Shown piece by piece: positions 17,982 to 43,826 of a stretch of DNA of 64,000 bases (its first letter is position 1; each line of letters begins with the position of its first letter). The notes below the pieces were generated by a model that searched no databases, was not told the origin of the DNA, and saw nothing but the letters and a program-made list of their open reading frames with translations. Source of the stretch: a virus. Taxonomy: Duplodnaviria > Caudoviricetes. The DNA lies in the IMG/VR virus record IMGVR_UViG_3300020576_004226, positions 21,322 through 85,321 of that record; one strand, written 5' to 3'. The position numbers and the translations under genes are program-made.

Positions 17982-19955
17982 ATGTCGGATTTGCAACAAG
18001 ATTACACGGCGGCAGGATTTGCTGCGCCTTCGGACACACGGCTTCCTGAATCACTATTGAGAACAGCGCACAGCCAAAAACAAACAGTAAACCCAAACAA
18101 AGTATTGAGCGAATTGACCGTATGGATGAAATACGCTCGCTACATCCGGGACAAACAACGGCGTGAAACATGGACAGAGATTTGCGACCGTAATCGGGAA
18201 ATGCACCTGGAAAAATACCCTTGCCTTGCCGAGACAATCAACCGTATTTATGACGAGTTGGTAATTCCCAAGAAGATTCTCCCCTCAATGCGTTCCATGC
18301 AGTTTGCCGGCAGAGCAATTAAGCAACAAAACAGCCGAATGTTCAACTGCGCCTACGCTCCGATTGATTCCATTGACTCATTTGGCGAAATTATGTTCCT
18401 GTTACTCGGTGGTACAGGCATGGGCTATTCAGTTCAACAACGCCACATTCAACAACTACCTTCTATCACCCGTCCAATGACTGGTTCGGTTGAGGAGTTT
18501 GTCGTTGATGATTCGATTGAAGGCTGGGGTGACGCTGTCAAACAACTCATGGAATGCTACACCGAGTCAGGCCATGGATACCCTAAGTTTGATTTGAGTC
18601 ATATTCGCCCAAGAGGAGCTGAATTGGTAACGTCAGGCGGCAAAGCACCTGGACCAGAACCGCTTCGCCTTTGCTTGACTCGAGTTGAGGAGATTCTGCA
18701 GCGTCATCAGACCGGAGAGCGGCTTACCGACGTGGAAGTACATGACATCATTTGTCACATTGCGGATGCGGTTTACGCAGGTGGTATTCGCCGAGCGGCT
18801 TTGATTTGTTTATTCGACCGCTCTTCCATTGATATGCTCAACTGTAAAAGCGGAGCATGGTGGGAAAACAACCCGCAAAGAGGCCGCGCAAACAATTCTG
18901 CCGTACTTCCAAGAGGCGAAGTAAGCGAAGCCGAGTTCAAACAAATTTGGGCTGCCGTGGAGGCTTCTGGTTCCGGTGAACCTGGCGTGTATTGGACAAA
19001 TGACGAGGACTGGGGAACCAACCCTTGCGTTGAGACAGCCTTGCGTCCATACCAGTTCTGCAACCTCGTTGAAATCAATGCTTCTGACATCACTTCAGAA
19101 AAGGATTTGTACGCTCGGGTTTGGGGAGCAACCGTCCTTGGAACGCTTCAAGCAGGTTACACTGATTTCAACTACCTGCGCAGTTGTTGGAAGGAGAACA
19201 CTGAGAAGGACGCATTGCTGGGCGTTTCCATGACAGGTCTCGCTTCGCGTCGTCTCGAGCAATTAGGGACAAATCTCGCGCAACTCGCTCAGTTCGCTAA
19301 GGAGGTGAACGTATCATTTGCCGAAAAGATTGACATAAACCCTTCCGCACGTATCACTTGTATCAAGCCTGCAGGCACAACCTCACTCACGCTTGGCACC
19401 TCGTCAGGCGTACACGCTTGGCACGATGAATACTACATTCGCCGGGTGCGCGTTGGGAAGCAAGAAGCCATATACAATTTCCTGGCTACCAACAACCCTG
19501 AATTGGTTGAAGATTGCAAGTTCAACCCGACTGCTACTGCGGTTGTTTCTATGCCGCAGCGTGCTCCGGTCGGCTCTTTGATTCGCACAGGTGAGACGGC
19601 TCTGGAAATGCTCGAAAGGGTAAAACATATTTACATGAATTGGGTGTTGGGAGGACATGCGGACGGCATCAACACCCATAATATCAGCGCCACAATTTCG
19701 TTGCTTCCCGAGGAGTGGGAAAAGGTTGGTAATTGGATGTGGCACAACCGTGATTGCTACAACGGCATTAGCGTCCTTCCGTTTGACGGAGGCACTTACG
19801 TACAGGCGCCATTTGAGACAATCACCGAGGAACAATACCACTCAATGCTTCCGCTCGTTGGTGATATTGATTTGAGTCAAGTTTTGGAAGCGCAAGACGG
19901 GACAGACCTCGTACACGAATTGGCTTGCGCTGGAGGAGTTTGCGAGATCAATTGA
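17982..19955 (+). CDS. nrdJ: Class II (adenosylcobalamin-dependent) ribonucleotide reductase
   Basis: LPSMRSMQFAG, FNCAY, TNPCVETAL...CNL, TCIKPAGTTSL and C-terminal CAGGVCEIN; no beta-subunit gene adjacent. Confidence 0.92.
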   Translation: MSDLQQDYTAAGFAAPSDTRLPESLLRTAHSQKQTVNPNKVLSELTVWMKYARYIRDKQRRETWTEICDRNREMHLEKYPCLAETINRIYDELVIPKKILPSMRSMQFAGRAIKQQNSRMFNCAYAPIDSIDSFGEIMFLLLGGTGMGYSVQQRHIQQLPSITRPMTGSVEEFVVDDSIEGWGDAVKQLMECYTESGHGYPKFDLSHIRPRGAELVTSGGKAPGPEPLRLCLTRVEEILQRHQTGERLTDVEVHDIICHIADAVYAGGIRRAALICLFDRSSIDMLNCKSGAWWENNPQRGRANNSAVLPRGEVSEAEFKQIWAAVEASGSGEPGVYWTNDEDWGTNPCVETALRPYQFCNLVEINASDITSEKDLYARVWGATVLGTLQAGYTDFNYLRSCWKENTEKDALLGVSMTGLASRRLEQLGTNLAQLAQFAKEVNVSFAEKIDINPSARITCIKPAGTTSLTLGTSSGVHAWHDEYYIRRVRVGKQEAIYNFLATNNPELVEDCKFNPTATAVVSMPQRAPVGSLIRTGETALEMLERVKHIYMNWVLGGHADGINTHNISATISLLPEEWEKVGNWMWHNRDCYNGISVLPFDGGTYVQAPFETITEEQYHSMLPLVGDIDLSQVLEAQDGTDLVHELACAGGVCEIN

Positions 19956-28978: not shown

Positions 28979-29773
28979 ATGGCAGACAACATTAAACAAA
29001 TCTTGAACGTACCCGAGGCCACGGAAGAACAATTGGTCATTGCAGAACAGGAAAGCGAAGGCATTGAAATTCATGACATCAATTCTCCTGAAGGCTTGGA
29101 GAAGTTGGGCTACATGCGCAAAATTCCATTGTTCATCGGAACCACTGCAGCTCACATGAATTTCGGTTCTGTTGTTGAGTTTATTCAGCAAAAGTTCCAA
29201 GAGGAATACCCGGACGTAATGCCTATCATTATGGACGTGCCGACCTCGCGTCAGGTTGAGAAGTTCATCTTCTCCAAGACAAGGGAAATCAACAAAATCA
29301 TTGAATTCCAGAAACTTCGCCAAAGTCCAGAGAATGTTCAACAGGTTCTTTCGGCTGCGATGCGATTGAAGTCTTTGATGGGTGCTAAGCCTTTCCGACT
29401 CAAAACTTGCGTTGACCGCACTAAGCACACGTACAAGAACGCTTCAGACTTGCTCGTTCTGATGTACGTTATGGGCTTTGTTGTACGGTGGAAAGCGGAG
29501 GGCGAATGGATGTACCAAATCATTTCCAGCCAAGCAGACTTTGAAGCCTTCGCCCAGCGTCGCATTGAGGAAGCCGCTCAACTTATTTATGAGCAGGAAA
29601 TGTACATTGATCAACTCCGCAAACTTGCCAACTTCAAGCCGAACGATGCTGAGATTCTCAATGAGGCTTTGATGCCGGCTGAAGATGTTGTTCCTGAAGT
29701 GGTTGAGAAGACCAAGAAGCCACGGCGCAAAAAGAATGACTTGGTCAAACGCGAAACACCCGAATCAGAATGA
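28979..29773 (+). CDS. Hypothetical protein directly upstream of terL
   Basis: About 264 aa, ATGA-coupled to terL. Confidence 0.6.
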   Translation: MADNIKQILNVPEATEEQLVIAEQESEGIEIHDINSPEGLEKLGYMRKIPLFIGTTAAHMNFGSVVEFIQQKFQEEYPDVMPIIMDVPTSRQVEKFIFSKTREINKIIEFQKLRQSPENVQQVLSAAMRLKSLMGAKPFRLKTCVDRTKHTYKNASDLLVLMYVMGFVVRWKAEGEWMYQIISSQADFEAFAQRRIEEAAQLIYEQEMYIDQLRKLANFKPNDAEILNEALMPAEDVVPEVVEKTKKPRRKKNDLVKRETPESE

Positions 29774-31467
29774 TTGCCACTGATAGCAAAACATTCCAAG
29801 CACAGATCAATGAACAGGCAACACTAACAAAGTTGACCGAGACAGCCCGCATTGTTGAGGAAATCATAAGCAACCTCGAGCCAGAGGCACTTTCCCAGAT
29901 TTTCTCGCAATGCGGGAATGACTTTAATCACACTTACGACATATTGTTTGACGAGTCTTACCGTGTACTTTTTGGCTCCAGAGGTGTAATCAAAGAAGCG
30001 CACCTCGGGTACATGGACAGACTTGCTGAAAATATGGAGGAGACGCTGAGAATAGAAAGCCTCAACTACTTCCTTGCGAGTGTGTTCCCTGAATTTGATA
30101 TCAACTGGCACCACTTGGAATGGGGAAATATGGCTCAACAATATAGGAGACTTGCCATCGAAGCACCACGCGACCATGGCAAGTCTTACTATTTTTCCAA
30201 TGTCTTCCCAGCTTGGAAAATGTATCGCTACAAGCCCAAAAATGCATTCATTGGCAACCCGAGACCGGACATTTACCTTTCCGAATTTGGCGCACTGATA
30301 ACCAACGAGGCTTCACTTGGGGAAGAACTGCTCGAGATTCTGAAGAACTCAATAGAAAGCAACCCTATTTTGCGCGATAGACTTTACCCAGGCAAAGGTT
30401 CAGCCGCCCAAACGAGTTGGGCTATGCGCAAAATAAAGTGCAGGAACGGTGCGCGTCTTATCACCAAATCTTATGGGACCAAGTTTCGTGGACGTCACCC
30501 TGGATGGATGGTATGCGATGACTTCATGGATGACTCGAGCCTGTATTCAAAAGAACAACGGGAGAAGTTTGTCAATTACTTTCAATCGGTCTTGATGAAC
30601 GCGGTTCTGAAGGAAGGACAAGTCATCAATGTCGGGACGCCATTCCATGAGAACGACCTTTTCGGCGTATTGAAGAAGCGGAAGGGCTGGAGGGTATTTG
30701 TGTATCCTGCCATTACTCCAGAAGGCCGGGTGCTTTGGTCAAGCCGCTATTCATTCCAAGACCTCATGGATAAGCGTGACGAAAATGGACCCATTGCCTT
30801 CTCGCGTGAGCAGCTGTGCAAACCCATTGTTAGTGACGCTTCAATTTTCCCCTACTCGCTTGTATCCAAAGCCTTCAAAGGAATGGAGAATTACAGGCTG
30901 GTACAGAACCGTGAATCCTTCCCAATAAGGTTCAACCGAGTTGTGACTGCGGGCGACTTTGCTATGTCAGCAAACACTGGCGCCGACTACACCGTATTCA
31001 TGACATTTGGCATTGACAATGATGACAACCGTTGGCTGTTAAACTTCTGGAGAGCCAAGGGTAAAACATTCCAAGAGCAGATGCTCCAGTTGAGGCGTAT
31101 CAACACCGAGTTTCGCCCTGATTGTATCATGCTCGAGTCAAACCAATTCCAACAGATTTTCGTTCAAGAAGCCGACCGCCAAGGACTTCCCGTTTTGCCG
31201 CATAATACCAACACCAACAAGTATGACATGAAGGAAGGCGTGCCCGGTTTGGCGTTGACATTTGAGCGTCAAAAGTTCCGCTTCCCGAGGGGCGACCAAT
31301 TTAGTATTGATGCTACTGACCTTGTTGCTTCAGAATTGGGTTCTATTGCGTATACTGATAAAGGACTTCAAGGAGTTGGTGAACATGACGATACTGTTAT
31401 GTGCCTTTGGATTGCCGAATGCAATGTCAGGTATGTTTCGACAGGCTTTAAGTTCTCCACTGCTTGA
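29770..31467 (+). CDS. terL: Terminase large subunit
   Basis: IEAPRDHGKS (Walker A), VCDDF (Walker B), VGTP, nuclease TAGDFA...DYT and GEHDDTVMCLW. Confidence 0.92.
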   Translation: MIATDSKTFQAQINEQATLTKLTETARIVEEIISNLEPEALSQIFSQCGNDFNHTYDILFDESYRVLFGSRGVIKEAHLGYMDRLAENMEETLRIESLNYFLASVFPEFDINWHHLEWGNMAQQYRRLAIEAPRDHGKSYYFSNVFPAWKMYRYKPKNAFIGNPRPDIYLSEFGALITNEASLGEELLEILKNSIESNPILRDRLYPGKGSAAQTSWAMRKIKCRNGARLITKSYGTKFRGRHPGWMVCDDFMDDSSLYSKEQREKFVNYFQSVLMNAVLKEGQVINVGTPFHENDLFGVLKKRKGWRVFVYPAITPEGRVLWSSRYSFQDLMDKRDENGPIAFSREQLCKPIVSDASIFPYSLVSKAFKGMENYRLVQNRESFPIRFNRVVTAGDFAMSANTGADYTVFMTFGIDNDDNRWLLNFWRAKGKTFQEQMLQLRRINTEFRPDCIMLESNQFQQIFVQEADRQGLPVLPHNTNTNKYDMKEGVPGLALTFERQKFRFPRGDQFSIDATDLVASELGSIAYTDKGLQGVGEHDDTVMCLWIAECNVRYVSTGFKFSTA

Positions 31468-33083: not shown

Positions 33084-33569
33084 ATGAGAAACAAACTTTC
33101 TTTGCTCCTGGGTTGTTTGACGCTGGTTTTGTTTGGTTTGTTCACCACTCCTGTTCAGGCTGAAGACAATTCGCCAACGCAGGTCTTTGTGGATCAAGCC
33201 GACCTTTCCTTCGATCAAGCCGTACCATCTGCCGTTCTGCTTTTGAACGCTCCGCTGCCCATTCTGTCGCCTCAATCCATTTTGGAAGTCCCCGGCGATG
33301 TTGGTTCCATTGCAACCGGAAATTTCGATGCTGATTGGCCTCCTGGCTCCACCACCGCGCAAGCAATAAATTTTGACAACTTGCTGAGGTGTGGATATCA
33401 TGAAAATTACGGCTATACCAACCTGAACTGGCAAAGCAACCAAAACTCCTGCTACAACACCACATTAACCGGAATTGATATTGACCGATCATGTGGCTTG
33501 AATCAGGATGTTACTCCGCTCGTTACCAGCACAGCCAATCAAACCACCCGGCATGTTCTGATGTGTTAG
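33084..33569 (+). CDS. Secreted hypothetical protein
   Basis: Signal peptide MRNKLSLLLGCLTLVLFGLFTTPVQA|E. Confidence 0.55.
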   Translation: MRNKLSLLLGCLTLVLFGLFTTPVQAEDNSPTQVFVDQADLSFDQAVPSAVLLLNAPLPILSPQSILEVPGDVGSIATGNFDADWPPGSTTAQAINFDNLLRCGYHENYGYTNLNWQSNQNSCYNTTLTGIDIDRSCGLNQDVTPLVTSTANQTTRHVLMC

Positions 33570-33604
33570 CGAGAAGCATGCACAAATGTCCCCCACGATT
33601 GAAG

Positions 33605-33647
33605 AAGTCGCTGCCTTGCTTGACCGCTCGGTAGCGACTTTTATTTT
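33605..33647 (+). terminator. Intrinsic terminator
   Basis: AAGTCGCTGCC...GGTAGCGACTT followed by TTATTTT. Confidence 0.6.
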
Positions 33648-33666
33648 GCACAAGGTTTTTAAGCAT

Positions 33667-34329
33667 ATGGACAATAAATATGTTATATGGTTTTTAGGAG
33701 CAAATGCTTCCGGCAAGTCAACTTTGTCTGCACTCATCCAGAGGGAATTGAGCGAACGTTACCCGAGGCGCAAGGACGCAAGAACTGATTTTGTGATTGA
33801 TCAAAGCAACGGAGTCATATTGACTTTGACGTCAACGAATAGTGCCAACTTAGGTAAGTTCAATCACCCTGTTCTTTATGAAGGAAAGGTCAAAACCAAT
33901 GCATGCTGCGGCACTGACACGCTCCCAAAGAAGGATTTGATAGGGAGGGCTTTGGAGGTTGCTGGCTCAAATGAAATTAAATTCATTTTTGTTGAGGGTA
34001 TTATGGCCACCCGACAATGGGTTGACCTATTCCCGGAAGGCTATCGAATTTTGCTCATATTGCTTGATATTGACATTGAGAACTGCATCCTGCGCCTTAC
34101 CCAGCGAAGAAGTGAGAAGTCCGGTCTCGAGCAAAGAGAGGTGCTCGAATCGCTGACCGAGAAGACGGTGGAGAACGTCACCGGGAAAATAAACGGCTTC
34201 CGCAGGATGTACGATGACCTGGTTTTGAGGCGAGATATTGTAGGAATGAAGTACGCTGTGGACCAAAGTTTTAACAGCGTCGAGATATCCAAACACATAG
34301 CAAATCTTTTAATTCATGGAAAAATTTGA
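33667..34329 (+). CDS. P-loop nucleotide kinase 1 (hypermodification-associated)
   Basis: WFLGANASGKST (Walker A), FIFVEG (Walker B-like) and RLTQRR lid; ATG at 33667. Confidence 0.75.
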   Translation: MDNKYVIWFLGANASGKSTLSALIQRELSERYPRRKDARTDFVIDQSNGVILTLTSTNSANLGKFNHPVLYEGKVKTNACCGTDTLPKKDLIGRALEVAGSNEIKFIFVEGIMATRQWVDLFPEGYRILLILLDIDIENCILRLTQRRSEKSGLEQREVLESLTEKTVENVTGKINGFRRMYDDLVLRRDIVGMKYAVDQSFNSVEISKHIANLLIHGKI

Positions 34330-35218
34330 GACCCACGTGCTCATCATCGGGGCTGGCTTGTTCGGCTCCATGACCCAGAAACTCCTTCGCTCCAAAGGCA
34401 TTGAGTCATTGATTGTTGACCGACGCGACCCGCTCTCCGCAAGCAAGTGCTCTTCAGGAATTTGGCGTCCAGGCTGGGCTGGAAAAATTGCTCCGCAAGT
34501 TGAGCAAAGTATCCCAACAATCAGCCTTTTCACGGCGATTGACACGCTTCCAATTTATGATGCCGACAAGGACACTGAGACAAGCATCGACTTCATTGAT
34601 TGCAACAACATTCTAAATGAAGACTTCCTGGAGGGTGATGTTATTGGCTGTAATTTTGTTGACAATCGCCCGAACGCCAAAGTGCGCTCCGTAATTGTTG
34701 ATGTTGACGGAGTCAAAGTGGAAATTGGTTGCACACAACTCGTCATTTGCGCAGGAGCATTTACCAACGCAGTGCTCGAGAAACTCAAACTCCCTGTTCT
34801 TTACGGGCTTGACGCGCATTGGGGAGCGGTTCTGCACTGCCGAGAGAAATTGACGCAAAACTTCATCCAGAATTGGGCTCCATACAAGCAATTGTACGGC
34901 TTAAACTTGATTCGAGACGGTAAAGAGGTGTCATACTTCACAATGGGTATGTCAGCAAAAAATCCTCCAAAGGGAGGTGACAACCGAACGCTTGCCATAG
35001 GTGAGAAAATGGAGGCCGCAGCCCGAGGCTTCAAAATGAAAAACATCATTGAGATACCCGAGGGCAACCGTCCTTTCTTTGCCGAGAAGGACGTTGATTT
35101 TGTCAACAAGCATACTGTCAACGTCTGGTCAGCAACTGGAGGCGCAAAAAACAGCACTCTGTTGTGCGGATATGTCGCTCAACGTCTTTTTCAAGAAATA
35201 ACAGGCCATGCCCAATAG
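34316..35218 (+). CDS. FAD-dependent oxidoreductase (DAO-like; candidate flavin-dependent lyase)
   Basis: LIIGAGLFG (GxGxxG), VDRRDPLSASKCSSG, ICAGA and ATGGAKNSTL. Confidence 0.82.
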   Translation: MEKFETHVLIIGAGLFGSMTQKLLRSKGIESLIVDRRDPLSASKCSSGIWRPGWAGKIAPQVEQSIPTISLFTAIDTLPIYDADKDTETSIDFIDCNNILNEDFLEGDVIGCNFVDNRPNAKVRSVIVDVDGVKVEIGCTQLVICAGAFTNAVLEKLKLPVLYGLDAHWGAVLHCREKLTQNFIQNWAPYKQLYGLNLIRDGKEVSYFTMGMSAKNPPKGGDNRTLAIGEKMEAAARGFKMKNIIEIPEGNRPFFAEKDVDFVNKHTVNVWSATGGAKNSTLLCGYVAQRLFQEITGHAQ

Positions 35219-35387
35219 TATGGAATGGAAATCAAAGTTAATTTTGCAAATAAAACACGGCATGCATAACGGCACAATCAAGCGTTCGATGGCACAAGAG
35301 ATTGTAAATTTGATGCGCGAGAATAAGCCGTTTCGGTTGTTGTACAACCAAAACCGAGGCTACGTGGGATTCCAGTACACATCATAA
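35208..35387 (+). CDS. Small hypothetical protein (59 aa, not in the ORF track)
   Basis: MPNSMEWKSKL...YVGFQYTS, overlapping the FAD gene stop. Confidence 0.45.
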   Translation: MPNSMEWKSKLILQIKHGMHNGTIKRSMAQEIVNLMRENKPFRLLYNQNRGYVGFQYTS

Positions 35388-35411
35388 GTTTAACCAAAAC
35401 TATTTAGCACC

Positions 35412-35720
35412 ATGGCAAAGGCCACCGACAAAAAGACTGCAAGCAAAGCAGCACCCGCTACCAAGCCGGCATCCAAACTCACCCCTGACGCAAAGGGCAA
35501 CTACCCGCACCAATTGTACTCTGTGAAGCAGAAGACTTTTGTTGATCTGGCCAAGAAGCCTCTGCCTGTTTTGACTTCCACCGGACGCGGCGCATACATG
35601 TGCAAAGGTCAGGATGTTGAAGGAAACACGCTGGCGATGATCGTGAGCAAATTGGTTGCTGCCAACTGGGTTGAACGCAAACTCGCTGTGTACGCAGAAG
35701 GTTCTGAACCGGAAGCGTAG
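35412..35720 (+). CDS. Small basic protein, possible nucleoid/DNA-binding protein (DUF5679/Cren7-CC1-like)
   Basis: K/A/P-rich tail MAKATDKKTASKAAPATKPASK plus YSVKQK...TGRGAYMCKG..EGNTLAMIVSK beta core. Confidence 0.45.
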   Translation: MAKATDKKTASKAAPATKPASKLTPDAKGNYPHQLYSVKQKTFVDLAKKPLPVLTSTGRGAYMCKGQDVEGNTLAMIVSKLVAANWVERKLAVYAEGSEPEA

Positions 35721-35748
35721 TCTGTCCGACTGTTTGCGTTTTTCTACT

Positions 35749-35792
35749 TCCTGCCGGGACACCTCTCCATGGTTAAGACCCGGCAGGATTTT
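35749..35792 (+). terminator. Intrinsic terminator
   Basis: TCCTGCCGGG...CCCGGCAGGA 10-bp stem followed by TTTT. Confidence 0.65.
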
Positions 35793-35806
35793 AATTTTGA
35801 AACATC

Positions 35807-36394
35807 ATGAAATTCAAGCAAATATCAAAAACTGAATTGTACCCTTGGCTGAATTATATCAGCAAAACCTTCCGTGGGATAATGCCTCCCAAAGAAAAGA
35901 AATTCCTTGGCGAAATTCGGGTTGGGGTTTTGTACAATTGCACAATGGTGGTCTTGGAAGATGAAGAAGTTGATGGTCACCCGTTCTTGTCCCTTATCAG
36001 TTACACAATCACAAAAAGGTATCTGAACATCTATTTTATGTACACAACTCCAGGCTTCCGTGGTATAGGACTCAACAATGCCATTTTGGATTATGTCATG
36101 GAAAATCACGCAGCTGAGATCGACCGTATATACGTCATCACCTCAACACTCGACAGCGTGGCGTTCTATTTCAACAAGGGCTTCAAGTTTTGGGGCTTAG
36201 ACAAAAACCGTTGCCTTGTCGCAGAGTTTGATATAACAGCAACTGAACAACCGCGCAAGTCAGAGAAGGTGTGTAAGGAACTTTACTTGGGAGAGCCTTT
36301 GAATGACGAGCGAATTGTTGACGAGTTGACGATGAATCAAAATCCAAATTACAATCACTCCGTCAAAGAATTGATGGCAAAGAAGATTCTATGA
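35807..36394 (+). CDS. GNAT-family acetyltransferase
   Basis: FMYTTPGFRGIGLNNAIL (motif A, R/QxxGxG) and VAFYFNKGFKFWG (motif B). Confidence 0.8.
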   Translation: MKFKQISKTELYPWLNYISKTFRGIMPPKEKKFLGEIRVGVLYNCTMVVLEDEEVDGHPFLSLISYTITKRYLNIYFMYTTPGFRGIGLNNAILDYVMENHAAEIDRIYVITSTLDSVAFYFNKGFKFWGLDKNRCLVAEFDITATEQPRKSEKVCKELYLGEPLNDERIVDELTMNQNPNYNHSVKELMAKKIL

Positions 36395-37353
36395 GCGACA
36401 CTAAAATCTACAAAGACTTTGACCTTTACAGCCGAGCGTTGATGGGCAGCAATGATGTCGACCCGACGTATCCGGTAATCAAGTCAATCGTTGAGAAAGA
36501 GGGATTTGACCCTTATTGGTTTTCATTCGTGTATGTAGCGTTCTACAGCCTGGAGACGGCAATCAAAATGTGCCGGGAAATGCCAACTCACGAGGCTTGG
36601 GACAGTAAGTTGTTTGCTCAAAAGCGGAGCAGCCGAGAGTGGAGCAAATTCGGTCACGAGCGCAGGGGAACTGCGAGGAACATCTTGACCCAAATCAATA
36701 ATTTCGAGCATATAAAGTTGTTCTTGGAATACTTCACAACTCCCACCGGAGAAATTGACCCGAGCCAATATCCAAAAGAATGGGCAAAACTACACCAAGA
36801 CCAAGCCTCATTCAGAGCAGCTCTTCAGACTTTACCGTTCCACGGCGGCTGGGCTTCTTTTAAGTTGGCTGAGATATGGGAGAAGGCTTTTGATTGGAGT
36901 CACTTTGAGATTCCAGACCTTGGAGTCATTGGCCGCGACCCGAATAGCAACGATGGTCCAGTTGGTGGCTTACGTTGGCTCTACGGAAGGGAGCACACCT
37001 ACGATGACACTTGGTATGGCATATGGGATGATCTTGGCTCTAAGTTGGCGAGAGCGTGGCGAGTCGACATCGGGAGAGTTGAGACGTGCTTCTGCAAATT
37101 CCATAAGTTGGTAAGCGGCAAGTATTACATTGGTCATGACATACACGAGTTTCACGAGTTGGAGCCTGTATTGGGTCGGAGGGTTTACCGCTCCATAATG
37201 GAAGAACATTTTGACCCGGAAATTTGGCAAGACTTCCACGGTGTACAAAAACAATTCAAATCAGTTTACGCAACCAAAGGCAATTTGTTATTCAGCAACT
37301 TCGCTGACAAACACCCAGAGGCTGACGTACTACAAATTATGTTGGATCAATGA
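36391..37353 (+). CDS. Amino acid:DNA transferase (aGPT-Pplase2/ADDT-like, HhH glycosylase fold)
   Basis: DVDPTYPV, WFSFVYVAFY, ERRG, GGWASFKLAEIW, GPVGGL and ETCFCKFHKLVSGKYYIGHDIHE. Confidence 0.78.
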   Translation: MSDTKIYKDFDLYSRALMGSNDVDPTYPVIKSIVEKEGFDPYWFSFVYVAFYSLETAIKMCREMPTHEAWDSKLFAQKRSSREWSKFGHERRGTARNILTQINNFEHIKLFLEYFTTPTGEIDPSQYPKEWAKLHQDQASFRAALQTLPFHGGWASFKLAEIWEKAFDWSHFEIPDLGVIGRDPNSNDGPVGGLRWLYGREHTYDDTWYGIWDDLGSKLARAWRVDIGRVETCFCKFHKLVSGKYYIGHDIHEFHELEPVLGRRVYRSIMEEHFDPEIWQDFHGVQKQFKSVYATKGNLLFSNFADKHPEADVLQIMLDQ

Positions 37354-37721
37354 AAAAGAAAGGAATGGAGGAGGACGTTGTGCGACTTCTCACTATCAAT
37401 ACTTCAACTGGCAAAGTTAGCAAACACATGCTGGTCGGCTCCAAGCGAGTTTTCATCGATTTGGAGCGTTGTCGCTGTCACGTTCCTGGGGAGTCGAAAT
37501 ACCAATACAAGCATCTTGGTGTAGGTTGGAACGACTGCGAGTTGAACGTGGAAGACCCGAGCCTCGTCATTGTATTGCCTAATTGGCGGGTGCGCTTTGC
37601 CCAGAAAATTTGGGAGGGCGTGTTCTGCGACGACTTCGACAGCGGCAAGAATGATACGATATTGTTGAACATAAAAGACTTGACCCGTTATGTGGGACAA
37701 GGCAAATGGAAGAAAATATGA
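37350..37721 (+). CDS. Hypothetical protein within the modification operon
   Basis: 123 aa, ATGA-coupled on both sides. Confidence 0.55.
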   Translation: MKKKGMEEDVVRLLTINTSTGKVSKHMLVGSKRVFIDLERCRCHVPGESKYQYKHLGVGWNDCELNVEDPSLVIVLPNWRVRFAQKIWEGVFCDDFDSGKNDTILLNIKDLTRYVGQGKWKKI

Positions 37722-38353
37722 AGATTTTATGGTTGATAGGCTCTATGGCCTCTGGCAAAACCACGCAACACAAGTTGCTCATCGAGTTGCTCGGCGACGG
37801 TACGCTTGATGTCAATAATGGCTGCAAAGACCCGCTCCCTTTTTGCTTTTCAGTTTCTGGCGAGGTTGGTTCGCTTGGGCTTCTGAAAGAAGGAGTACAA
37901 ACTTGTGGAATTGACCCGGTTTACGGCGACCTCAAAAAAGAAGGGCTTCGCCGCTCCATTGCGATGGCTCACGAGAAAGGCGCAGAGTTGATTATTATGG
38001 AGGGTGCACAAGCGTCTATGGAATGGTACAAGCAAGTCATTCTACCGCAATACTACGATGCGGAGCTGTACGTCGTCCACCTGTCAATATCTTATGACCA
38101 CAACTTGCAAAGACTCCGGCAACGGCGGTGGCTAAAAACTCACGACACATTGGAAGGCTTCACTGGCTCTGACCAGATGGTTTTGGAAGACCGGACGTAT
38201 GACAATGTGCTCGGAAAGAACAAACAATACCGCAGCCTATTCCGGGCATTAACAAAGCAGTCTGAAAAGGACGGCTTCAAGACTCTGGAGATTGATGCGC
38301 TGCTTGATCGTTATCAAATTCTTGAACAAATTGCTGAATTCATATATGCCTAA
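37718..38353 (+). CDS. P-loop nucleotide kinase 2 (hypermodification-associated)
   Basis: WLIGSMASGKTT, LIIMEG and RLRQRR lid; paralogous to ORF 33667. Confidence 0.75.
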   Translation: MKILWLIGSMASGKTTQHKLLIELLGDGTLDVNNGCKDPLPFCFSVSGEVGSLGLLKEGVQTCGIDPVYGDLKKEGLRRSIAMAHEKGAELIIMEGAQASMEWYKQVILPQYYDAELYVVHLSISYDHNLQRLRQRRWLKTHDTLEGFTGSDQMVLEDRTYDNVLGKNKQYRSLFRALTKQSEKDGFKTLEIDALLDRYQILEQIAEFIYA

Positions 38354-39044
38354 ATCACTCATTTTCTGCGACGACTCCCTGAAAGTATTGAAGCGTTTCC
38401 CGGCTCGCCACTTCGCTGTCAGCTGCTTCTCTCCACCCTATGGCGTCAATTCCTTCTTTGATATCAGAACCGACTTTGACAGCCCAGAAAGCAAGTTCCT
38501 CACTTATTTTCAGGAGATCACTCGGGTGTGCGATATCACTGCAATCAATTTCACCCAGTTGCTTGAAGGTGACAAGCGCAATTCCCTCTTCATTGAGAAA
38601 TTGATTATCAACGCGGCTTGCATGGGTGTCAACCTTTACGACCGTTGGGTAATTGAGAAGCCTTCGGTGAAGCCGAGGAGAGGCGAACGTCCTTTGAGCG
38701 GCTATGAGTTTGTGCTGCTGTTTTTGAACCCTAACATGACCGAGAAGGACGTTGTTTTGAACCAAGATGCTTACAACTTCCGTACAAACATAAAGGCTTC
38801 CGGACACGCAAACTACAAGAAGTCGGATGAATTCCGTTACACTGGAACCACCCCGTATTTCCCTGAGATTCCACGTCAGGTCATTTCCATATATGGCAGT
38901 GGTCGGGTGCTTGATCCATTTTCTGGCTCCGGTACGACGTTGGTTGAGGCTTTGAAGTTGGGGAAGGATTGCGTTGGGGTTGATATCATTCCGGAAATTG
39001 TTGAATTTTCAAGAAACAATTGCAGACAATATGAAAGTCACTGA
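38346..39044 (+). CDS. Amino-DNA methyltransferase, beta class (N4-C/N6-A)
   Basis: N-terminal SPPY (motif IV), C-terminal VLDPFSGSGTT (motif I) and GVDI. Confidence 0.85.
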   Translation: MPKSLIFCDDSLKVLKRFPARHFAVSCFSPPYGVNSFFDIRTDFDSPESKFLTYFQEITRVCDITAINFTQLLEGDKRNSLFIEKLIINAACMGVNLYDRWVIEKPSVKPRRGERPLSGYEFVLLFLNPNMTEKDVVLNQDAYNFRTNIKASGHANYKKSDEFRYTGTTPYFPEIPRQVISIYGSGRVLDPFSGSGTTLVEALKLGKDCVGVDIIPEIVEFSRNNCRQYESH

Positions 39045-40095
39045 TATGCGCGACATAGTTGGCTACAATTTCGCCAACGGCATTGACCTGAGAAAGCCGC
39101 TCGAGTGGGTCGGTTCTCTTCCCAGCCCCGAGGTTGACGTGGATGAAGCGCACCTTGCCACGTTCTTTGAGATCATGAAAGAACGCCAAAAAATTTGGGT
39201 CAGGCGTTCGCTCCTTGACAAACCCGCTCCGTGGACTAAAAATCCCATTCTGCGCGACTACAAGTACACCAATGTGTACAGGGAACTTGATCGAGCAAGC
39301 CAATTCATGATTAAGCACATCTTGACCCAAGATATGACGATTGAAGAAAAACTGTTCAAATTGCTCGTTTTCCGTTTCTACAACCAACCCGATTCTTTCC
39401 GGCAGAACGGCGGCTTGATTGACCTTCCGAGTTATGAAAATTGGGACGTCAAAAAGATTTGGGCGCAAACAGTGGCACAGCGTCAAAAGTCCAACCCTTG
39501 GCACGTCGCTTACATGATGAACATGGCGTTCGCTCCGAAGTTGGAGAAGCCTTGGAGCAAGCCTGGACTGTACAAAGACTGGGCATACACTCACATTGTA
39601 TTCAATGCTATTCATAAGGTGATACCCGGCTTGGTTACTGTGCTCGATCAAGCCAAAAGACCGGAAGACATAATTGAATGCCTGGAAACAATTCCTGCTG
39701 TCTCCACTTTCCAATCGCACGAATTTTACATTGACTTCACATATTTCAGCCGTTACTCGGAAGACGACGCCATAATGAGTTTTGACGCGAATGATTTTAC
39801 AAATGTGGGTCCAGGGGCATCGCTCGGGTTGCGGTTGATATTCCCATCAATGCGTCCAGCCGACCAGAAAGCAGGGCTTTACTACCTACACGAATTGGCT
39901 GAGAATTACTTGGGGGAGGACTTTCCGTATCTCGTGTGGAATAAAGATCAAAAGAAATATTATGTTGTACACGAGTACGACCGCAATCTGTTCACGCTTC
40001 ACCAAATTGAAATGTTTTTGTGCGAATTTTCTAAGTACTGGAAAATGGTAATTGGTGCAGGAAAGCAGAGATCAAAATTCAAACCACATGTGTAA
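39031..40095 (+). CDS. 5-hmdU DNA kinase helical domain protein (aGPT-Pplase1-like)
   Basis: ERQKIW..R...PAPWTKNPILRDYKYTNVYRELDR, FRFYNQP, FQSHEFYIDFTY, VGPGASLGL and IEMFLCEFSKY. Confidence 0.82.
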   Translation: MKVTDMRDIVGYNFANGIDLRKPLEWVGSLPSPEVDVDEAHLATFFEIMKERQKIWVRRSLLDKPAPWTKNPILRDYKYTNVYRELDRASQFMIKHILTQDMTIEEKLFKLLVFRFYNQPDSFRQNGGLIDLPSYENWDVKKIWAQTVAQRQKSNPWHVAYMMNMAFAPKLEKPWSKPGLYKDWAYTHIVFNAIHKVIPGLVTVLDQAKRPEDIIECLETIPAVSTFQSHEFYIDFTYFSRYSEDDAIMSFDANDFTNVGPGASLGLRLIFPSMRPADQKAGLYYLHELAENYLGEDFPYLVWNKDQKKYYVVHEYDRNLFTLHQIEMFLCEFSKYWKMVIGAGKQRSKFKPHV

Positions 40096-40612
40096 CAAAG
40101 GCATGAGAATTCATTCTGAAGAATTCAAGCGAAAAATAAGAGAAAAACTCAATCCTCCTGGTAGAAGTTATTCGACAACGAAAGGCTGTAAATTGACTTT
40201 GAGTGAATCCCAGAGGGAAGATTTGAGAAACAGAGCCAAGAAAAATAATGAGCGTGGTTTCGAGAATAAAGGTGGTCGTTGCCAATTTTATCAAGTCGAT
40301 GGCATCGTTTTGCAAGGTCGCTACGAGTTGGTGTATTATCTTGGATGCAGTGAAAAACCCAAGCGAGCACCACGGATAAAAACTCCTTTCGGTTGGTATT
40401 CTCCTGATTTTGAGTTTGAAGATAGATTTGTAGAAATTAAATCAATTTACACAATCAAAACTTGCATTGCCAACGGACAGTACAAGAAAATTGCTTGGGT
40501 CAGAAAAAATATCAAAAACATTGAAATCAAGGTTCTCAATGAGGAAGATTCTCGGTTGTTCTTGTTGCAGCATGACATATCGAAGTTGCGATACCGACCG
40601 TCAAAGAATTAG
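40088..40612 (+). mobile_element. Putative free-standing PD-(D/E)XK endonuclease (homing-endonuclease-like)
   Basis: WYSPDFEFEDRFVEIKS motif, QGRYE and a basic N-terminal region; AT-richer; overlaps the upstream stop. Confidence 0.6.
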
Positions 40613-40662: not shown

Positions 40663-42159
40663 ATGGATACTTTACAAGAACTCAAACGTCAAAGAGGAGT
40701 TATTGCACGCAATATCTTATCAACCATCCAGTTGCCTGCTTCAGATGGGCTTCCAGTATATCACGAATCAGATTTTGAAAAGGCCGTCTCAGATGGCTTG
40801 ATCGAAGTTTTTGAGGTTGAGAAAGTTTCCCAATTTGTTCGCAATTTACAGAAAGCCGAGGTTGACGCCAACGGAGACACCACGCTTCTTGAGGAAATTG
40901 AGAAGGCAAGAAGGGATGTTTCCAAACTTATCAAAGTAAAGAAGCAAGACAAGCGTGGAAAAATGACCACTGTATATGTCCGGGCTGGCGAAAAAGCGAA
41001 AGAAGGCGATTCTGGAAAAAAGTCTGAGGCCGCTTCTGGAGATGGCGGCGAAGCAAAAATAGGTAAAATATCTCGTTCGCATGCCGAGTCCAATCCAGAT
41101 GATGCCATTCATACCTACTCAAAGGAAATTGCGCACCACTCCGGTATGTCGCACGATGAATACAATAAGTTGCATCCGGCTTCAAAGAAGGAATTGCTGA
41201 AAACCCTTCTCACTCATCCAGCGCACAATGCGGAAGGAAGTAAGACTGTTCCTGCAGATGACAAGAAGGAAGAGCCTGATTACCACTCGCTCGGCAGGAT
41301 TTTGTCTCATGACTTTGATCATACGAAAAAACACTTAGGTGACAAATATGTTTCAAAAGACGGCAAAAGAATTGATCAACACGCCATATTGGCAGATCAT
41401 CCAGGAGACAAATTAAAACAAGCAGCCGACAAATTGGATGATGCTAAGAAAGGCAAAAGCGATCACAAAGACCTCGGTAAAGTTCACCCGGTTGACTGGG
41501 ATGGACCGAGCAAGGTGAAGGTTGTCGGCGCTGACGACAAGCAAGTACATGTGAAGCGAGTTGGAAAGGATGGCAAGGAAATGCAGGGAGATGAACACAG
41601 CATGTCATATTCGCACAAGGAATGGGATGAGGAAAAACAAACAGGAAAAGCACTTCACGGACAAGACCCAAAGGCTTTTGGAGATGATAACCCAGACGAA
41701 TCTCATGGCCAAAAAGGTAAACGTCCAAAAGAATGGAAAAATCCTGATTACTATAAAAATTGGGATGTGGATGAGCTAAAGGGAGCTATAAAACATGGAG
41801 AAGATACAGCTGACTACGAGGAGGGAGATGAGATTCACCAAGAATTAGAAGCAATGAAAGTGGCTTTGAAATCAAAAGCAAAGCAAGAAAAATCTCATGT
41901 CCAATCTCTTTCAGAAGATTTATTTGAGAATTACATCAATCCTTCGATGAATTGGAAGAATGACATGAAGCAAATTTGGGAGAAAAACGGAAAGCCTTCA
42001 AAGATTGCAATGCACACAAAGTTGAATGAATTACTTTCAAATGAGTATGATTCCGCTTCAGAAGGTGGTTTTCCGTATGAAGGAACTAAAGAAGAATTCA
42101 TCAATGCTGTACGTTCTGACATTTTGTCGGCAATTTTTGGAGAAACAAATAAAGGATAA
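40663..42159 (+). CDS. Putative head-packaged (internal/cargo) protein
   Basis: FEKA, LQKA and IEKA sites in the first 82 aa, then a basic hairpin and K/D/H-rich low-complexity modules; directly upstream of the portal. Confidence 0.55.
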   Translation: MDTLQELKRQRGVIARNILSTIQLPASDGLPVYHESDFEKAVSDGLIEVFEVEKVSQFVRNLQKAEVDANGDTTLLEEIEKARRDVSKLIKVKKQDKRGKMTTVYVRAGEKAKEGDSGKKSEAASGDGGEAKIGKISRSHAESNPDDAIHTYSKEIAHHSGMSHDEYNKLHPASKKELLKTLLTHPAHNAEGSKTVPADDKKEEPDYHSLGRILSHDFDHTKKHLGDKYVSKDGKRIDQHAILADHPGDKLKQAADKLDDAKKGKSDHKDLGKVHPVDWDGPSKVKVVGADDKQVHVKRVGKDGKEMQGDEHSMSYSHKEWDEEKQTGKALHGQDPKAFGDDNPDESHGQKGKRPKEWKNPDYYKNWDVDELKGAIKHGEDTADYEEGDEIHQELEAMKVALKSKAKQEKSHVQSLSEDLFENYINPSMNWKNDMKQIWEKNGKPSKIAMHTKLNELLSNEYDSASEGGFPYEGTKEEFINAVRSDILSAIFGETNKG

Positions 42160-43826
42160 TGAGCGACACAAAACCTCACAAATTAGACGCCATTTCTGGT
42201 GCTATAGCTAAATTGGAATTGCTCCGGCTGAAGACGCTGGAGCAAAGCCTTGTTTCTAATGATCCACATGAGATAATGAAGGCTGAAACTGTGCTCGCTT
42301 CTGTTCAGAATAGGGATGAAAGCGATCGCAAGAGCTATCAAATTGATCCAAACGATTTTTACAGTGCATTTGGATACAAGGAGCGCAGAACTGGGATGTC
42401 TTATGGATTGTTGCGTAATATGGCTAAAACGCCTATTATCAACGCCATTATTCGAACCCGTATCAACCAAGTCGCATCGTTCAGTGAACCACAGGAAGAT
42501 AGGTATTCTTTGGGTTTTGTTATTGAGAAGAAGCCACTTCGTCATGATGACAAAGATTCATCAAAGAAATTGACGAAGCAAGAGATGAAGGAAATTGACT
42601 TTTTGACCGATTTCATCAATAATTGCGGAGTAAACAATTCATTTGAGGGAGACGATTTTGACACGTTCATAAGGAAAATCACTCGAGATTCACTCATATA
42701 CGATCAAATGTGCTTTGAGATTGTTCCTGACCGTAAAGGCTTCCCGATGGAGTTCATGGCGGTTGACGCGAGCACAATTCGCATTGCGGAGTCGTTTGAC
42801 GACGACGAGTACAAGCGGCTCATTTCGCAGGGACATCACTCTGCTTCTATACAAGGCCGCCAAGTCAAAGGCTACTACCCCAATTTTGTACAAATTTGGC
42901 AGAATGAGATTCGAGCTGAATTTTACCCTTGGGAAATGTGCATGGGTATTCGCAACCCAACAACTGACGTGCGCTCCAATGGCTATGGCATTTCAGAACT
43001 TGAAGAATTGGTTTCGACAATCACCTCGCTGCTTTGGGGTGAAGAGTACAACAGACGCTTCTTCAAACAAGGCTCAATGCCAAAGGGTATGTTCCGTGTA
43101 AGCGGAAATGTTAGCGAGACCCGGCTGCGCGAGTTTCGCCAATTTTGGCAAAGCACAATGCAAGGTGTTTGGAACAGCTGGAGGCTTCCGATTATCCAGT
43201 CTGACCAGATTGAGTATGTTGACCTCCAGAAGACCAACCAGGAAATGGAGTTTTCAAACTGGATTGAGTTCCTCATCAAAGTGTCGTGCGCCATATACTC
43301 AATAGACCCTGCCGAGGTGAACTTTCCGCTCTCCGGTGGGGCAAACTCCAGCACGCTCTTCGAAGGCAGCAACGAGCAGCGTCTCGAGCATTCTCGTGAC
43401 AAAGGCTTGGCGCCTATATTGCGCTTCCTCCAGAAGCGTATAAATAAATTCCTTGTCGGTGCTTTTTATGGAGGCAAATACCGTTTCCGTTTTGTAGGAA
43501 TAGATGCTTTGACACCACAGGATGAGCAAGAAATGGACGTGAAGGCTTTGAGCAATTACGAAACACTTGACGAGGTTCGGGTGCGTCGTGGTTTGAGTGC
43601 GCTCGGTGAAGACAAAGGAGGCAATTTGATCATGAACCCCAATTACATGCAATTCGCCAATCAAAAGGCGATGGAAGACAGCGGAGCAGGAATGCCCGGT
43701 CAACCCGGCATGGATGGTATGGGTCAAATGCAAGATGGAGAAGGCGAGGCTGCTCCAGGAAAAGAAGAAGATCAAAATCCGTTCACTAAGTCAATTGAGG
43801 ATTATTTGAAAAAACTCAATTCTTGA
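42159..43826 (+). CDS. Portal protein
   Basis: LRNMAKTP...IIRTRINQV, RDSLIYDQ, AVDASTIR, GYGISELE, FFKQGSMPKG, DMEF/EMEF-type motif and IDPAEVNF; position in the head module. Confidence 0.9.
   Translation: MSDTKPHKLDAISGAIAKLELLRLKTLEQSLVSNDPHEIMKAETVLASVQNRDESDRKSYQIDPNDFYSAFGYKERRTGMSYGLLRNMAKTPIINAIIRTRINQVASFSEPQEDRYSLGFVIEKKPLRHDDKDSSKKLTKQEMKEIDFLTDFINNCGVNNSFEGDDFDTFIRKITRDSLIYDQMCFEIVPDRKGFPMEFMAVDASTIRIAESFDDDEYKRLISQGHHSASIQGRQVKGYYPNFVQIWQNEIRAEFYPWEMCMGIRNPTTDVRSNGYGISELEELVSTITSLLWGEEYNRRFFKQGSMPKGMFRVSGNVSETRLREFRQFWQSTMQGVWNSWRLPIIQSDQIEYVDLQKTNQEMEFSNWIEFLIKVSCAIYSIDPAEVNFPLSGGANSSTLFEGSNEQRLEHSRDKGLAPILRFLQKRINKFLVGAFYGGKYRFRFVGIDALTPQDEQEMDVKALSNYETLDEVRVRRGLSALGEDKGGNLIMNPNYMQFANQKAMEDSGAGMPGQPGMDGMGQMQDGEGEAAPGKEEDQNPFTKSIEDYLKKLNS

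Follow-up and report, generated by a model that had tools for sequence, protein, structure and literature searches.

The window analyzed here, by which we mean the whole stretch of 64,000 nucleotides, comprises bases 21322-85321 of the linear IMG/VR virus record IMGVR_UViG_3300020576_004226 (85,321 bp). Positions 33586-40095 of the window hold ten plus-strand genes, overlapping or closely spaced, that encode in order a P-loop kinase (K1), an FAD protein, the small protein p59, the small basic protein p102, a GNAT-fold protein, an amino acid:DNA transferase (AADT), p123, a second P-loop kinase (K2), an amino-methyltransferase (MTase), and a clade-1 aGPT-Pplase (Pplase1). We conclude that this cluster is quite probably an operon for post-replicative thymidine hypermodification of the PaMx11 type, found here in a new viral lineage; the core of the system is already known, and the link to the MTase is new. 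Judged from the protein sequences, the product is likely a base of the 5-aminomethyl-2'-deoxyuridine (5-NmdU) or 5-acetylaminomethyl-dU type. In PaMx11, the pathway to 5-acetylaminomethyl-dU is encoded by gp46-gp49 (Lee et al. 2021, PMC8989533; structures 8Z2M, 8Z2N, 8Z2O, 8Z79, PMC11472151).

Adjacent genes overlap at K1/FAD protein (14 nt), FAD protein/p59 (11), GNAT/AADT (4), AADT/p123 (4), p123/K2 (16), K2/MTase (8), and MTase/Pplase1 (14), and only two junctions have gaps, p59-p102 (24 nt) and p102-GNAT (86 nt). No terminator-like site was found on the plus strand inside 33586-40095. A sigma-70 promoter scan was uninformative, the host being likely a member of the Bacteroidota. The set of open reading frames and their tight coupling, listed in a preliminary description made from the sequence alone, were confirmed, all being present on the plus strand, with the starts of K1, MTase, and the last gene corrected. 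K1, placed there at 33667, probably starts at 33586, because the K1 proteins of related loci are 241-245 residues long and that of locus L005 aligns over 239 residues; position 33667 corresponds to internal Met28. (L- and G-numbers are the labels of this analysis for the loci and genomes compared.) The most likely starts of the MTase and Pplase1 are the ATG codons at 38346 and 39031, giving proteins of 232 and 354 residues.

The same description had proposed a PaMx11-like route with a kinase, a transferase, a flavin lyase, and an acetyltransferase, and this held up on homology to solved PaMx11 and YuA enzymes, retention of active-site residues, and a GNAT fold. The FAD protein matched the DAO/FAD family PF01266 (1.8e-9, 38 bits against a cut-off of 27.9), has the FAD-binding motif IIGAGLFGS, and aligned over its full length (residues 5-295) with the solved PaMx11 gp47 (8Z2O/8Z79; E 4e-16). 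Residues W51, P179-Y180, Q182, R242, and K268 of gp47 form the cage around the flipped base and hold the glycyl carboxylate (PMC11472151), and they correspond to W54, P189-Y190, Q192, R252, and K278 of the window protein. The FAD protein was found in all related loci. In one of them the flavin lyase gene is present as two overlapping reading frames of 185 and 121 residues (L007:6580-7402), which could reflect either a frameshift or a mistake in the assembly.

The AADT belongs to a divergent subfamily of clade 2. Of its 85 homologues, the majority match PF18724, and a profile built from 34 subfamily sequences matched the solved AADTs 25qc (2.6e-11), which we assigned to YuA Pplase2 via residue numbering, and PaMx11 gp46 (8Z2M; 1.8e-8). 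The pair E231 and C235 (VETCFCK) is invariant in the 34 sequences and aligns with the Glu-x3-Cys of both structures; the essential catalytic cysteine of gp46 is Cys247, with a neighboring glutamate. The glycine pocket of YuA Pplase2, a glycine:DNA transferase (PMC13458397), consists of D24, E96, K159, K248, Y257, and D262. Its six residues have as counterparts D24, E90, K158, K236, Y245, and D250 in the window AADT, all invariant in the subfamily, in a mapping that rests on low-identity alignments; the similarity of the window AADT to the YuA enzyme itself is detectable at the profile level only. The Pplase2 of Acinetobacter phage SH-Ab 15599 is a diaminopropane transferase, and changing two positions equivalent to K248 and Y257 sufficed to turn the diaminopropane transferase into a glycine transferase (PMC13458397). 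Because the six pocket residues, including these two specificity switches, are invariant, glycine is the predicted donor. Identity of the subfamily to cultured-phage AADTs is only 21-28%, with uncharacterized actinophage proteins nearest, and the window protein is about 30 residues longer than gp46; these features would fit an enzyme that attaches another alpha-amino acid, leading to the same 5-aminomethyl-dU after cleavage through a different intermediate and by-product. We consider this improbable, given the invariant pocket and the retention by the flavin lyase of the Arg with a proposed role in glycyl-carboxylate binding.

The two kinases are paralogues, with 26% identity over their full length (BLASTP, E 1e-13), and of 20 K1/K2 family members 6 match PF18748, the best at 6.9e-16. 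K1 was present in 9/9 related loci. K2 was borne out as the second P-loop kinase of the preliminary description by its full-length relationship to K1 and its Walker A motif. For the candidate acetyltransferase, the AlphaFold2 model (pLDDT 82.7) gave 446 Foldseek matches in the PDB at E<=0.001, of which those listed were GNAT-type acetyltransferases; the acetyl-CoA motif A reads RGIGL. The assignments of K1, K2, and GNAT rest on profiles and fold, because tblastn against phage records gave no match, K1 and K2 finding no cultured-phage kinase. On the modeled structure, the window GNAT would be an analogue of PaMx11 gp48 in position and fold.

Several results weigh against the PaMx11-type assignment. 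In the FAD protein, gp47 residues F52 and Y244 are replaced by Ala55 and Phe254. Of the two Pfam families named earlier as a check on the cluster, PF18723 was matched above its cut-off (3e-44, by Pplase1), but the AADT, used alone, reached only 4.4e-4 against PF18724 (20.5 bits, cut-off 26.2). K1 matched PF18748 (HMUDK_HMUD1) at 9.3e-5 (22.4 bits, cut-off 27) and PF18751 likewise below the cut-off, K2 had no Pfam match, and GNAT matched PF13508 at 2.5e-4, below the Pfam cut-off. A tblastn search with GNAT found nothing at E 0.1 in 50,697 phage records, PaMx11 gp48 included. Finally, neither a thymidylate-synthase (TS) homologue or dUMP hydroxymethylase nor ThyX, TET/JBP, or dCMP deaminase genes were found in the 85-kb record, which CheckV rates as 76% complete; a search beyond the window for the hydroxymethylase and the deaminase, suggested in the preliminary description, thus yielded neither in this record. 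Formally, the record as it stands has no genes for 5-hmdU synthesis, an outcome that the preliminary description had named as refuting its reading.

The lack of TS-like, ThyX, and TET/JBP genes could mean that the operon is a nonfunctional remnant in a phage unable to make 5-hydroxymethyl-2'-deoxyuridine (5-hmdU). We regard this as very improbable, since the genes are all intact and overlapping, synonymous differences to L005 exceed non-synonymous ones in every gene compared, and the incomplete record is cut 15 nt before the start of dnaE, exactly at the position of the TS-like gene in relatives. That gene lies directly upstream of dnaE both in G001, a relative whose 110,210-bp genome is complete and bears terminal repeats, and in G002, which is 71% complete. 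The hydroxymethylase gap is therefore read most simply, from this synteny, as an artefact of contig truncation, and we rejected it as a refutation of the pathway. In the TS-like protein of the relatives the catalytic Cys is retained, and Asn occupies the site known to distinguish dUMP from dCMP enzymes (N177 in TS, D179 in T4 gp42). Among phages, this protein is matched best by the TS/dUMP-hydroxymethylase genes of M6/PaMx11-like Pseudomonas phages.

Two further genes were noted near dnaE or the TS-like gene. An HD YfbR-like 5'-deoxynucleotidase gene follows dnaE both in the genome of the window phage (L001:3504-4190) and in G001 (L017:5550-6212), and elsewhere such a gene follows the TS-like gene (L023:5478-6089, L027:15569-16261). 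That TS and HD genes recur as a pair suggests that thymidine-hypermodifying phages remove a canonical dNMP, perhaps dTMP. In G001, the TS-like gene and dnaE are also immediately preceded by a gene for a clear aspartate 1-decarboxylase, PanD (L017:129-638; PF02261, 2.7e-44), and a beta-alanine supply beside the hydroxymethylase could serve to build another adduct in G001.

The new element of the cluster is the MTase. It matched PF01555 (N6_N4_Mtase) at 3e-13 (50.7 bits, cut-off 26.7), with SPPY as motif IV and FSGSGTT as motif I, and its AlphaFold2 model (pLDDT 89.8) shows a compact amino-methyltransferase of the beta class. Besides motif-level matches, only four real relatives were found among 5.8 billion clustered proteins, and an exhaustive HMMER search of 1.84 billion representatives gave 16 full-length subfamily clusters (at 50% identity), followed by a sharp drop in score. 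The gene order is K2-MTase-Pplase1 in the window lineage; AADT-MTase-FAD-kinase-GNAT-Pplase1 in L020, a small phage with a Terminase_3 terminase; FAD-MTase-kinase-244aa-Pplase1-GIY-YIG-TS-HD-PolA in L023, on whose contig no GNAT was detected; and FAD-54aa-MTase-kinase-GNAT in L024. On the 7-kb contig L025 it is GATase_6-AADT-MTase-190aa-kinase-Pplase1 (L025:1359-3726), with no flavin lyase detected, so that the same MTase subfamily is joined there with a different tailoring set. No hypermodification gene was detected on the contig of L019, a relative of L023, or on the 4-kb contig L022. Altogether, 5 of 7 informative contexts of the subfamily lie inside thymidine-hypermodification clusters, versus 1 of 80 generic phage PF01555 loci (Fisher p 3e-6). 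The control loci (870 kb) came from a search with the MTase alignment and their MTases are at most 27% identical over the full length; the single positive one, with Pplase1 or AADT nearby, is the closest outgroup. Moreover, the MTases of the window and L020 are 45% identical, while their AADT, FAD, and Pplase1 proteins are 21-26% identical. These comparisons are good evidence, at the level of sequence and gene context, for a functional tie between the subfamily and thymidine-hypermodification clusters.

Compared with its L005 counterpart, the MTase gene has 97.1% nucleotide identity against 74-87% for its neighbors, with 19 synonymous and 1 non-synonymous codon differences. This disparity and ratio indicate a recent cassette exchange under purifying selection; in this lineage the MTase gene behaves as an accessory cassette. 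A further idea, that the MTase gene split a once-fused kinase/helical-domain gene, was rejected, since L003 lacks the MTase and still has K2 and Pplase1 as two distinct genes.

The preliminary description had proposed that the MTase might add chemistry; the contexts above lend this candidate role comparative support. By analogy, the MTase may N-methylate the amine on the hypermodified thymine (5-NmdU or the adduct), converting for example 5-aminomethyl-dU to 5-methylaminomethyl-dU, a proposal that we hold tentatively and with somewhat less than even confidence. In the literature we found no report of such a methylation step or of methylaminomethyl-dU in phage DNA. Against this proposal, the fold does not set the MTase apart from ordinary N4-cytosine or N6-adenine DNA methyltransferases, as the top Foldseek matches are N4C and N6A enzymes alike. 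The five positive contexts are not fully independent, representing at least three, and perhaps only three, independent architectures; the L019 MTase is not beside hypermodification genes; in L003, K2 overlaps Pplase1 and leaves no room for an MTase; and the complete genome G001 has no PF01555 gene at all.

Most of these points would equally suit an ordinary sequence-specific N4-cytosine or N6-adenine DNA methyltransferase that leaves the modified thymine alone and is in the cluster only because anti-restriction genes are often co-transferred and co-expressed. This is a serious possibility, to which we give a little under an even chance. The protein is a PF01555 member with canonical SPPY and FxGxG motifs, its model superposes equally on PvuII, A. 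vaga N4CMT, CcrM, RsrI, and MboIIA, and it is dispensable in the lineage. In L027 a generic PF01555 MTase lies about 2 kb from a hypermodification cluster, and N6/N4 methyltransferases are listed among the domains co-occurring with phage 5mYOX clusters (PMC13229309). Yet a merely co-located gene would not readily explain the embedding of this subfamily in hypermodification genes relative to the generic loci, or its conservation between the window and L020 beyond that of the surrounding enzymes, and the region available for a target-recognition domain is short and variable.

Pplase1, the product of the last gene, provides a second concrete lead. The preliminary description had called it a 5-hmdU DNA kinase helical-domain protein. 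The match to that family, HMUDK_hel, was strong (PF18723, 151.9 bits against a cut-off of 25; phrog_2396, 1.4e-45), but the protein is a clade-1 aGPT-Pplase, a paralogue of the AADT and not itself a kinase. It matched M6 ORF055 (gp55) and records annotated "aGPT-Pplase1", and the same phage proteins bear both names. Pplase1 was found in all related loci; a search for related loci with this protein alone yielded none. The motif I-E-x3-C-E-x2-K-Y is kept in 12/12 aligned homologues, its Glu-x3-Cys having the spacing of the AADT catalytic pair, and a Glu replaces the carboxylate-binding Lys of glycine transferases. From these residues, Pplase1 is probably an active enzyme on 5-PmdU, the product of 5-hmdU phosphorylation, and often stands beside a kinase.

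Together with K2, and possibly the MTase, Pplase1 might form a second module acting on 5-PmdU sites unused by the AADT, either adding a second modification there or turning them into another base, in which case the virion DNA would carry two thymine derivatives. In L003, L010, and L011, K2 immediately precedes Pplase1, and in L020, L023, L025, and L027 a kinase is next to or near Pplase1. The invariant Glu-x3-Cys combined with the Lys-to-Glu replacement is in keeping with such a module, and the M6 paralogue gp55 is dispensable for GlyT formation in vitro (PMC8989533) and must therefore have another role. We nonetheless consider two derivatives rather unlikely: L007, L008, L009, and L012 have Pplase1 with one detected kinase only, no biochemical activity of clade-1 proteins was found in the literature examined, and the search returned no longer, kinase-fused Pplase1, a weak point in that fusions of about 570 residues lay outside the length band searched. 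In G001, two tandem K2-like kinase paralogues precede the clade-1 Pplase in addition to K1 (L011:10924-11598 and L011:11595-12218).

Taken together, and keeping the PaMx11-type assignment, we propose the following scheme. A dUMP hydroxymethylase, whose gene probably lies immediately outside the contig at its 5' end, and the HD 5'-deoxynucleotidase would allow replication with 5-hmdU in place of T. K1 and/or K2 would then phosphorylate 5-hmdU in DNA to 5-PmdU, and the AADT, using Cys235 and Glu231, would displace the phosphate and attach glycine via its alpha-amine to give N-alpha-glycinylthymine (N-alpha-GlyT). The gp47-like flavoenzyme would oxidize the N-C-alpha bond and release 5-aminomethyl-dU, and GNAT would acetylate the amine to 5-acetylaminomethyl-dU. 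The MTase could N-methylate the free amine of 5-NmdU or the adduct, so that part of the T sites would carry methylaminomethyl or N-methyl-N-acetyl derivatives, and a further product of its own may come from Pplase1, which probably acts with K2 on 5-PmdU. All chemical steps in this phage we infer: those of the transferase and the flavoenzyme from homology and conserved residues, acetylation from fold, and phosphorylation from family-level similarity.

The core K1-FAD-AADT-Pplase1, located just before the portal gene, is kept in nine related loci; the search with the AADT alignment had given four IMG/VR loci. The accessory genes are distributed more narrowly (Table 1).

Table 1. Genes of the putative hypermodification operon and the gene directly downstream, in window coordinates.
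Gene product	Coordinates	Strand	Features	Occurrence in related loci
K1, P-loop kinase, candidate 5-hmdU DNA kinase	33586..34329	+	Walker A GANASGKST; weak PF18748/PF18751	
Flavin-dependent N-alpha-glycinylthymine lyase/oxidase (NGTO), PaMx11 gp47 homologue	34316..35218	+	8Z2O/8Z79 match	
p59, small ORF	35208..35387	+		only L005, L021
p102, small basic protein	35412..35720	+	Lys/Ala/Pro-rich N-terminal tail; conserved cluster member	L003, L005, L021, L007-L011
GNAT-fold acetyltransferase, candidate 5-NmdU N-acetyltransferase	35807..36394	+	weak PF13508; AlphaFold2 fold	only close subclade: window, L003, L005, L021
AADT (aGPT-Pplase clade 2), divergent subfamily, predicted glycine-specific	36391..37353	+	PF18724; subfamily profile	
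p123 ORF	37350..37721	+		only L005, L021
K2, second P-loop kinase, K1 paralogue	37706..38353	+	Walker A GSMASGKTT; BLASTP to K1	L003, L005, L010, L011, L021; directly 5' of Pplase1 where no MTase lies between
Beta-class amino-methyltransferase (MTase), rare subfamily	38346..39044	+	PF01555; SPPY 29-32, FSGSGTT 192-198	within lineage only window, L005/L006, L021
Clade-1 aGPT-Pplase (Pplase1; Pfam HMUDK_hel), AADT paralogue	39031..40095	+	PF18723; E-x3-C-E motif	
p186, PD-(D/E)xK-like, directly downstream of operon; membership uncertain	40088..40612	+	motif PDFEF..FVEIKS	

Additional roles had been suggested for the three small proteins, none of which matched Pfam, PHROGs, or NCBIfam. Only p102 is conserved across the lineage, where its profile was found next to the FAD gene or in the AADT-Pplase1 interval, and ESM Atlas gave only a weak lead to DUF5679-like small domains. 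p59 is 87% identical to its counterpart in L005 and 68% to that in L021. p123, for which ESM Atlas gave no fold lead, has homologues only in these two relatives, both of which have the MTase, and is absent from L003.

Other genes were seen in or next to the related clusters. In the closest relative, a GIY-YIG endonuclease gene lies between AADT and p123 (L005:10103-10618, L006:3339-3854), and another lies between Pplase1 and TS in L023 (L023:3858-4445), which suggests that hypermodification clusters are hot spots where mobile genes insert. L008 has a MazG-like (PRA-PH) pyrophosphohydrolase between the flavin lyase and AADT (L008:9188-9787), and neither GNAT nor K2 was detected in it. p186, which had no family match in Pfam, PHROGs, or NCBIfam, is kept after Pplase1 in L005, where it has an extra N-terminal zinc-finger-like segment, and in G001 (L011), and could be a homing endonuclease or a system-linked nuclease. 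On the other side of the operon, directly 5' of K1, a 161-residue protein with a signal-peptide-like N-terminal segment (p161, 33084-33569) likewise lacks a match in these three collections and is kept only in L005 (44%).

The cluster stands between the genes for the large terminase, TerL (29770-31467), and the portal (42159-43826), and the large reading frames of the window are all on the plus strand. The record encodes, outside the window, a DnaE-type polymerase, the HD YfbR-like 5'-deoxynucleotidase, RecA, and Mre11/Rad50-like proteins, and the genome of this uncultured phage would be about 110 kb. A whole-cluster nucleotide search against the 50,697 phage records gave no match. The closest cultured TerL proteins are those of Bacteroides thetaiotaomicron phages (35% identity, E 4e-104), which makes the Bacteroidota affinity put forward in the preliminary description plausible. 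At 17982-19955, a 657-residue protein with sub-threshold matches to ribonucleotide reductase families (PF02867, PF21995, PF17975) may be a very divergent ribonucleotide reductase.

Thymidine hypermodifications shield phage DNA from restriction and other nucleases, and the enzymes that make them are tools for writing DNA chemistry. As the core pathway has been characterized, the cluster by itself is one more member, which extends the pathway to a widespread group of uncultured phages of about 100-110 kb whose terminase is nearest those of Bacteroides phages. The added value lies in the rare MTase subfamily, found mostly inside 5-hmdU-derived modification clusters; the invariant Glu-x3-Cys of Pplase1 with its K2 pairing and the conserved p102 are other features of note. 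If the MTase does methylate the appended amine, the N6/N4 amino-methyltransferase fold would gain a new reaction, and the new bases should appear in liquid chromatography-mass spectrometry as +14 u on 257 or 299 u. The product 5-methylaminomethyl-dU would be the DNA counterpart of tRNA 5-methylaminomethyluridine (mnm5U), and with GNAT an N-methyl-N-acetyl derivative could form.

Among known systems, PaMx11 has the same classes of enzyme, namely a P-loop 5-hmdU DNA kinase, a clade-2 AADT with Cys/Glu, a flavin lyase, and a GNAT protein. The window differs in gene order, in its two kinases, in the embedded N6/N4-type MTase, and in p59, p102, and p123; its AADT, kinases, and GNAT have diverged beyond the reach of BLAST against any phage record, and the virus is unrelated, with a genome of about 110 kb, a polymerase of the DnaE type, and a TerL nearest those of Bacteroides phages. 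The clade-1 Pplase paralogue, in turn, resembles M6 gp55.

In E. coli MnmC, which acts on the tRNA wobble uridine, the FAD domain converts 5-carboxymethylaminomethyluridine (cmnm5U) to 5-aminomethyluridine (nm5U), and the S-adenosylmethionine (SAM) domain converts nm5U to mnm5U. A flavin lyase and a SAM methyltransferase co-occur in the window, L020, L023, and L024, and, should the MTase act on the amine, the two would reproduce the two-step logic of MnmC on DNA. The window MTase differs in being a separate protein of the beta-class N6_N4 type, likened to MnmC by pathway logic. Homology of PaMx11 gp47 to the FAD domain of MnmC, the enzyme in which a second domain methylates nm5U, was pointed out by Lee et al. 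(PMC8989533).

The 5-(2-aminoethoxy)methyl-2'-deoxyuridine (5-NeOmdU) pathway of Salmonella phage ViI employs two 5-hmdU DNA kinase paralogues, gp67 and gp243, and two aGPT-Pplases (PMC8989533). ViI attaches serine through oxygen and decarboxylates it with a pyridoxal phosphate (PLP) enzyme, and neither a PLP-dependent nor a radical-SAM enzyme was detected in the window cluster. What the two phages share is the presence, in one genome, of two paralogous kinases together with a clade-1/clade-2 Pplase pair.

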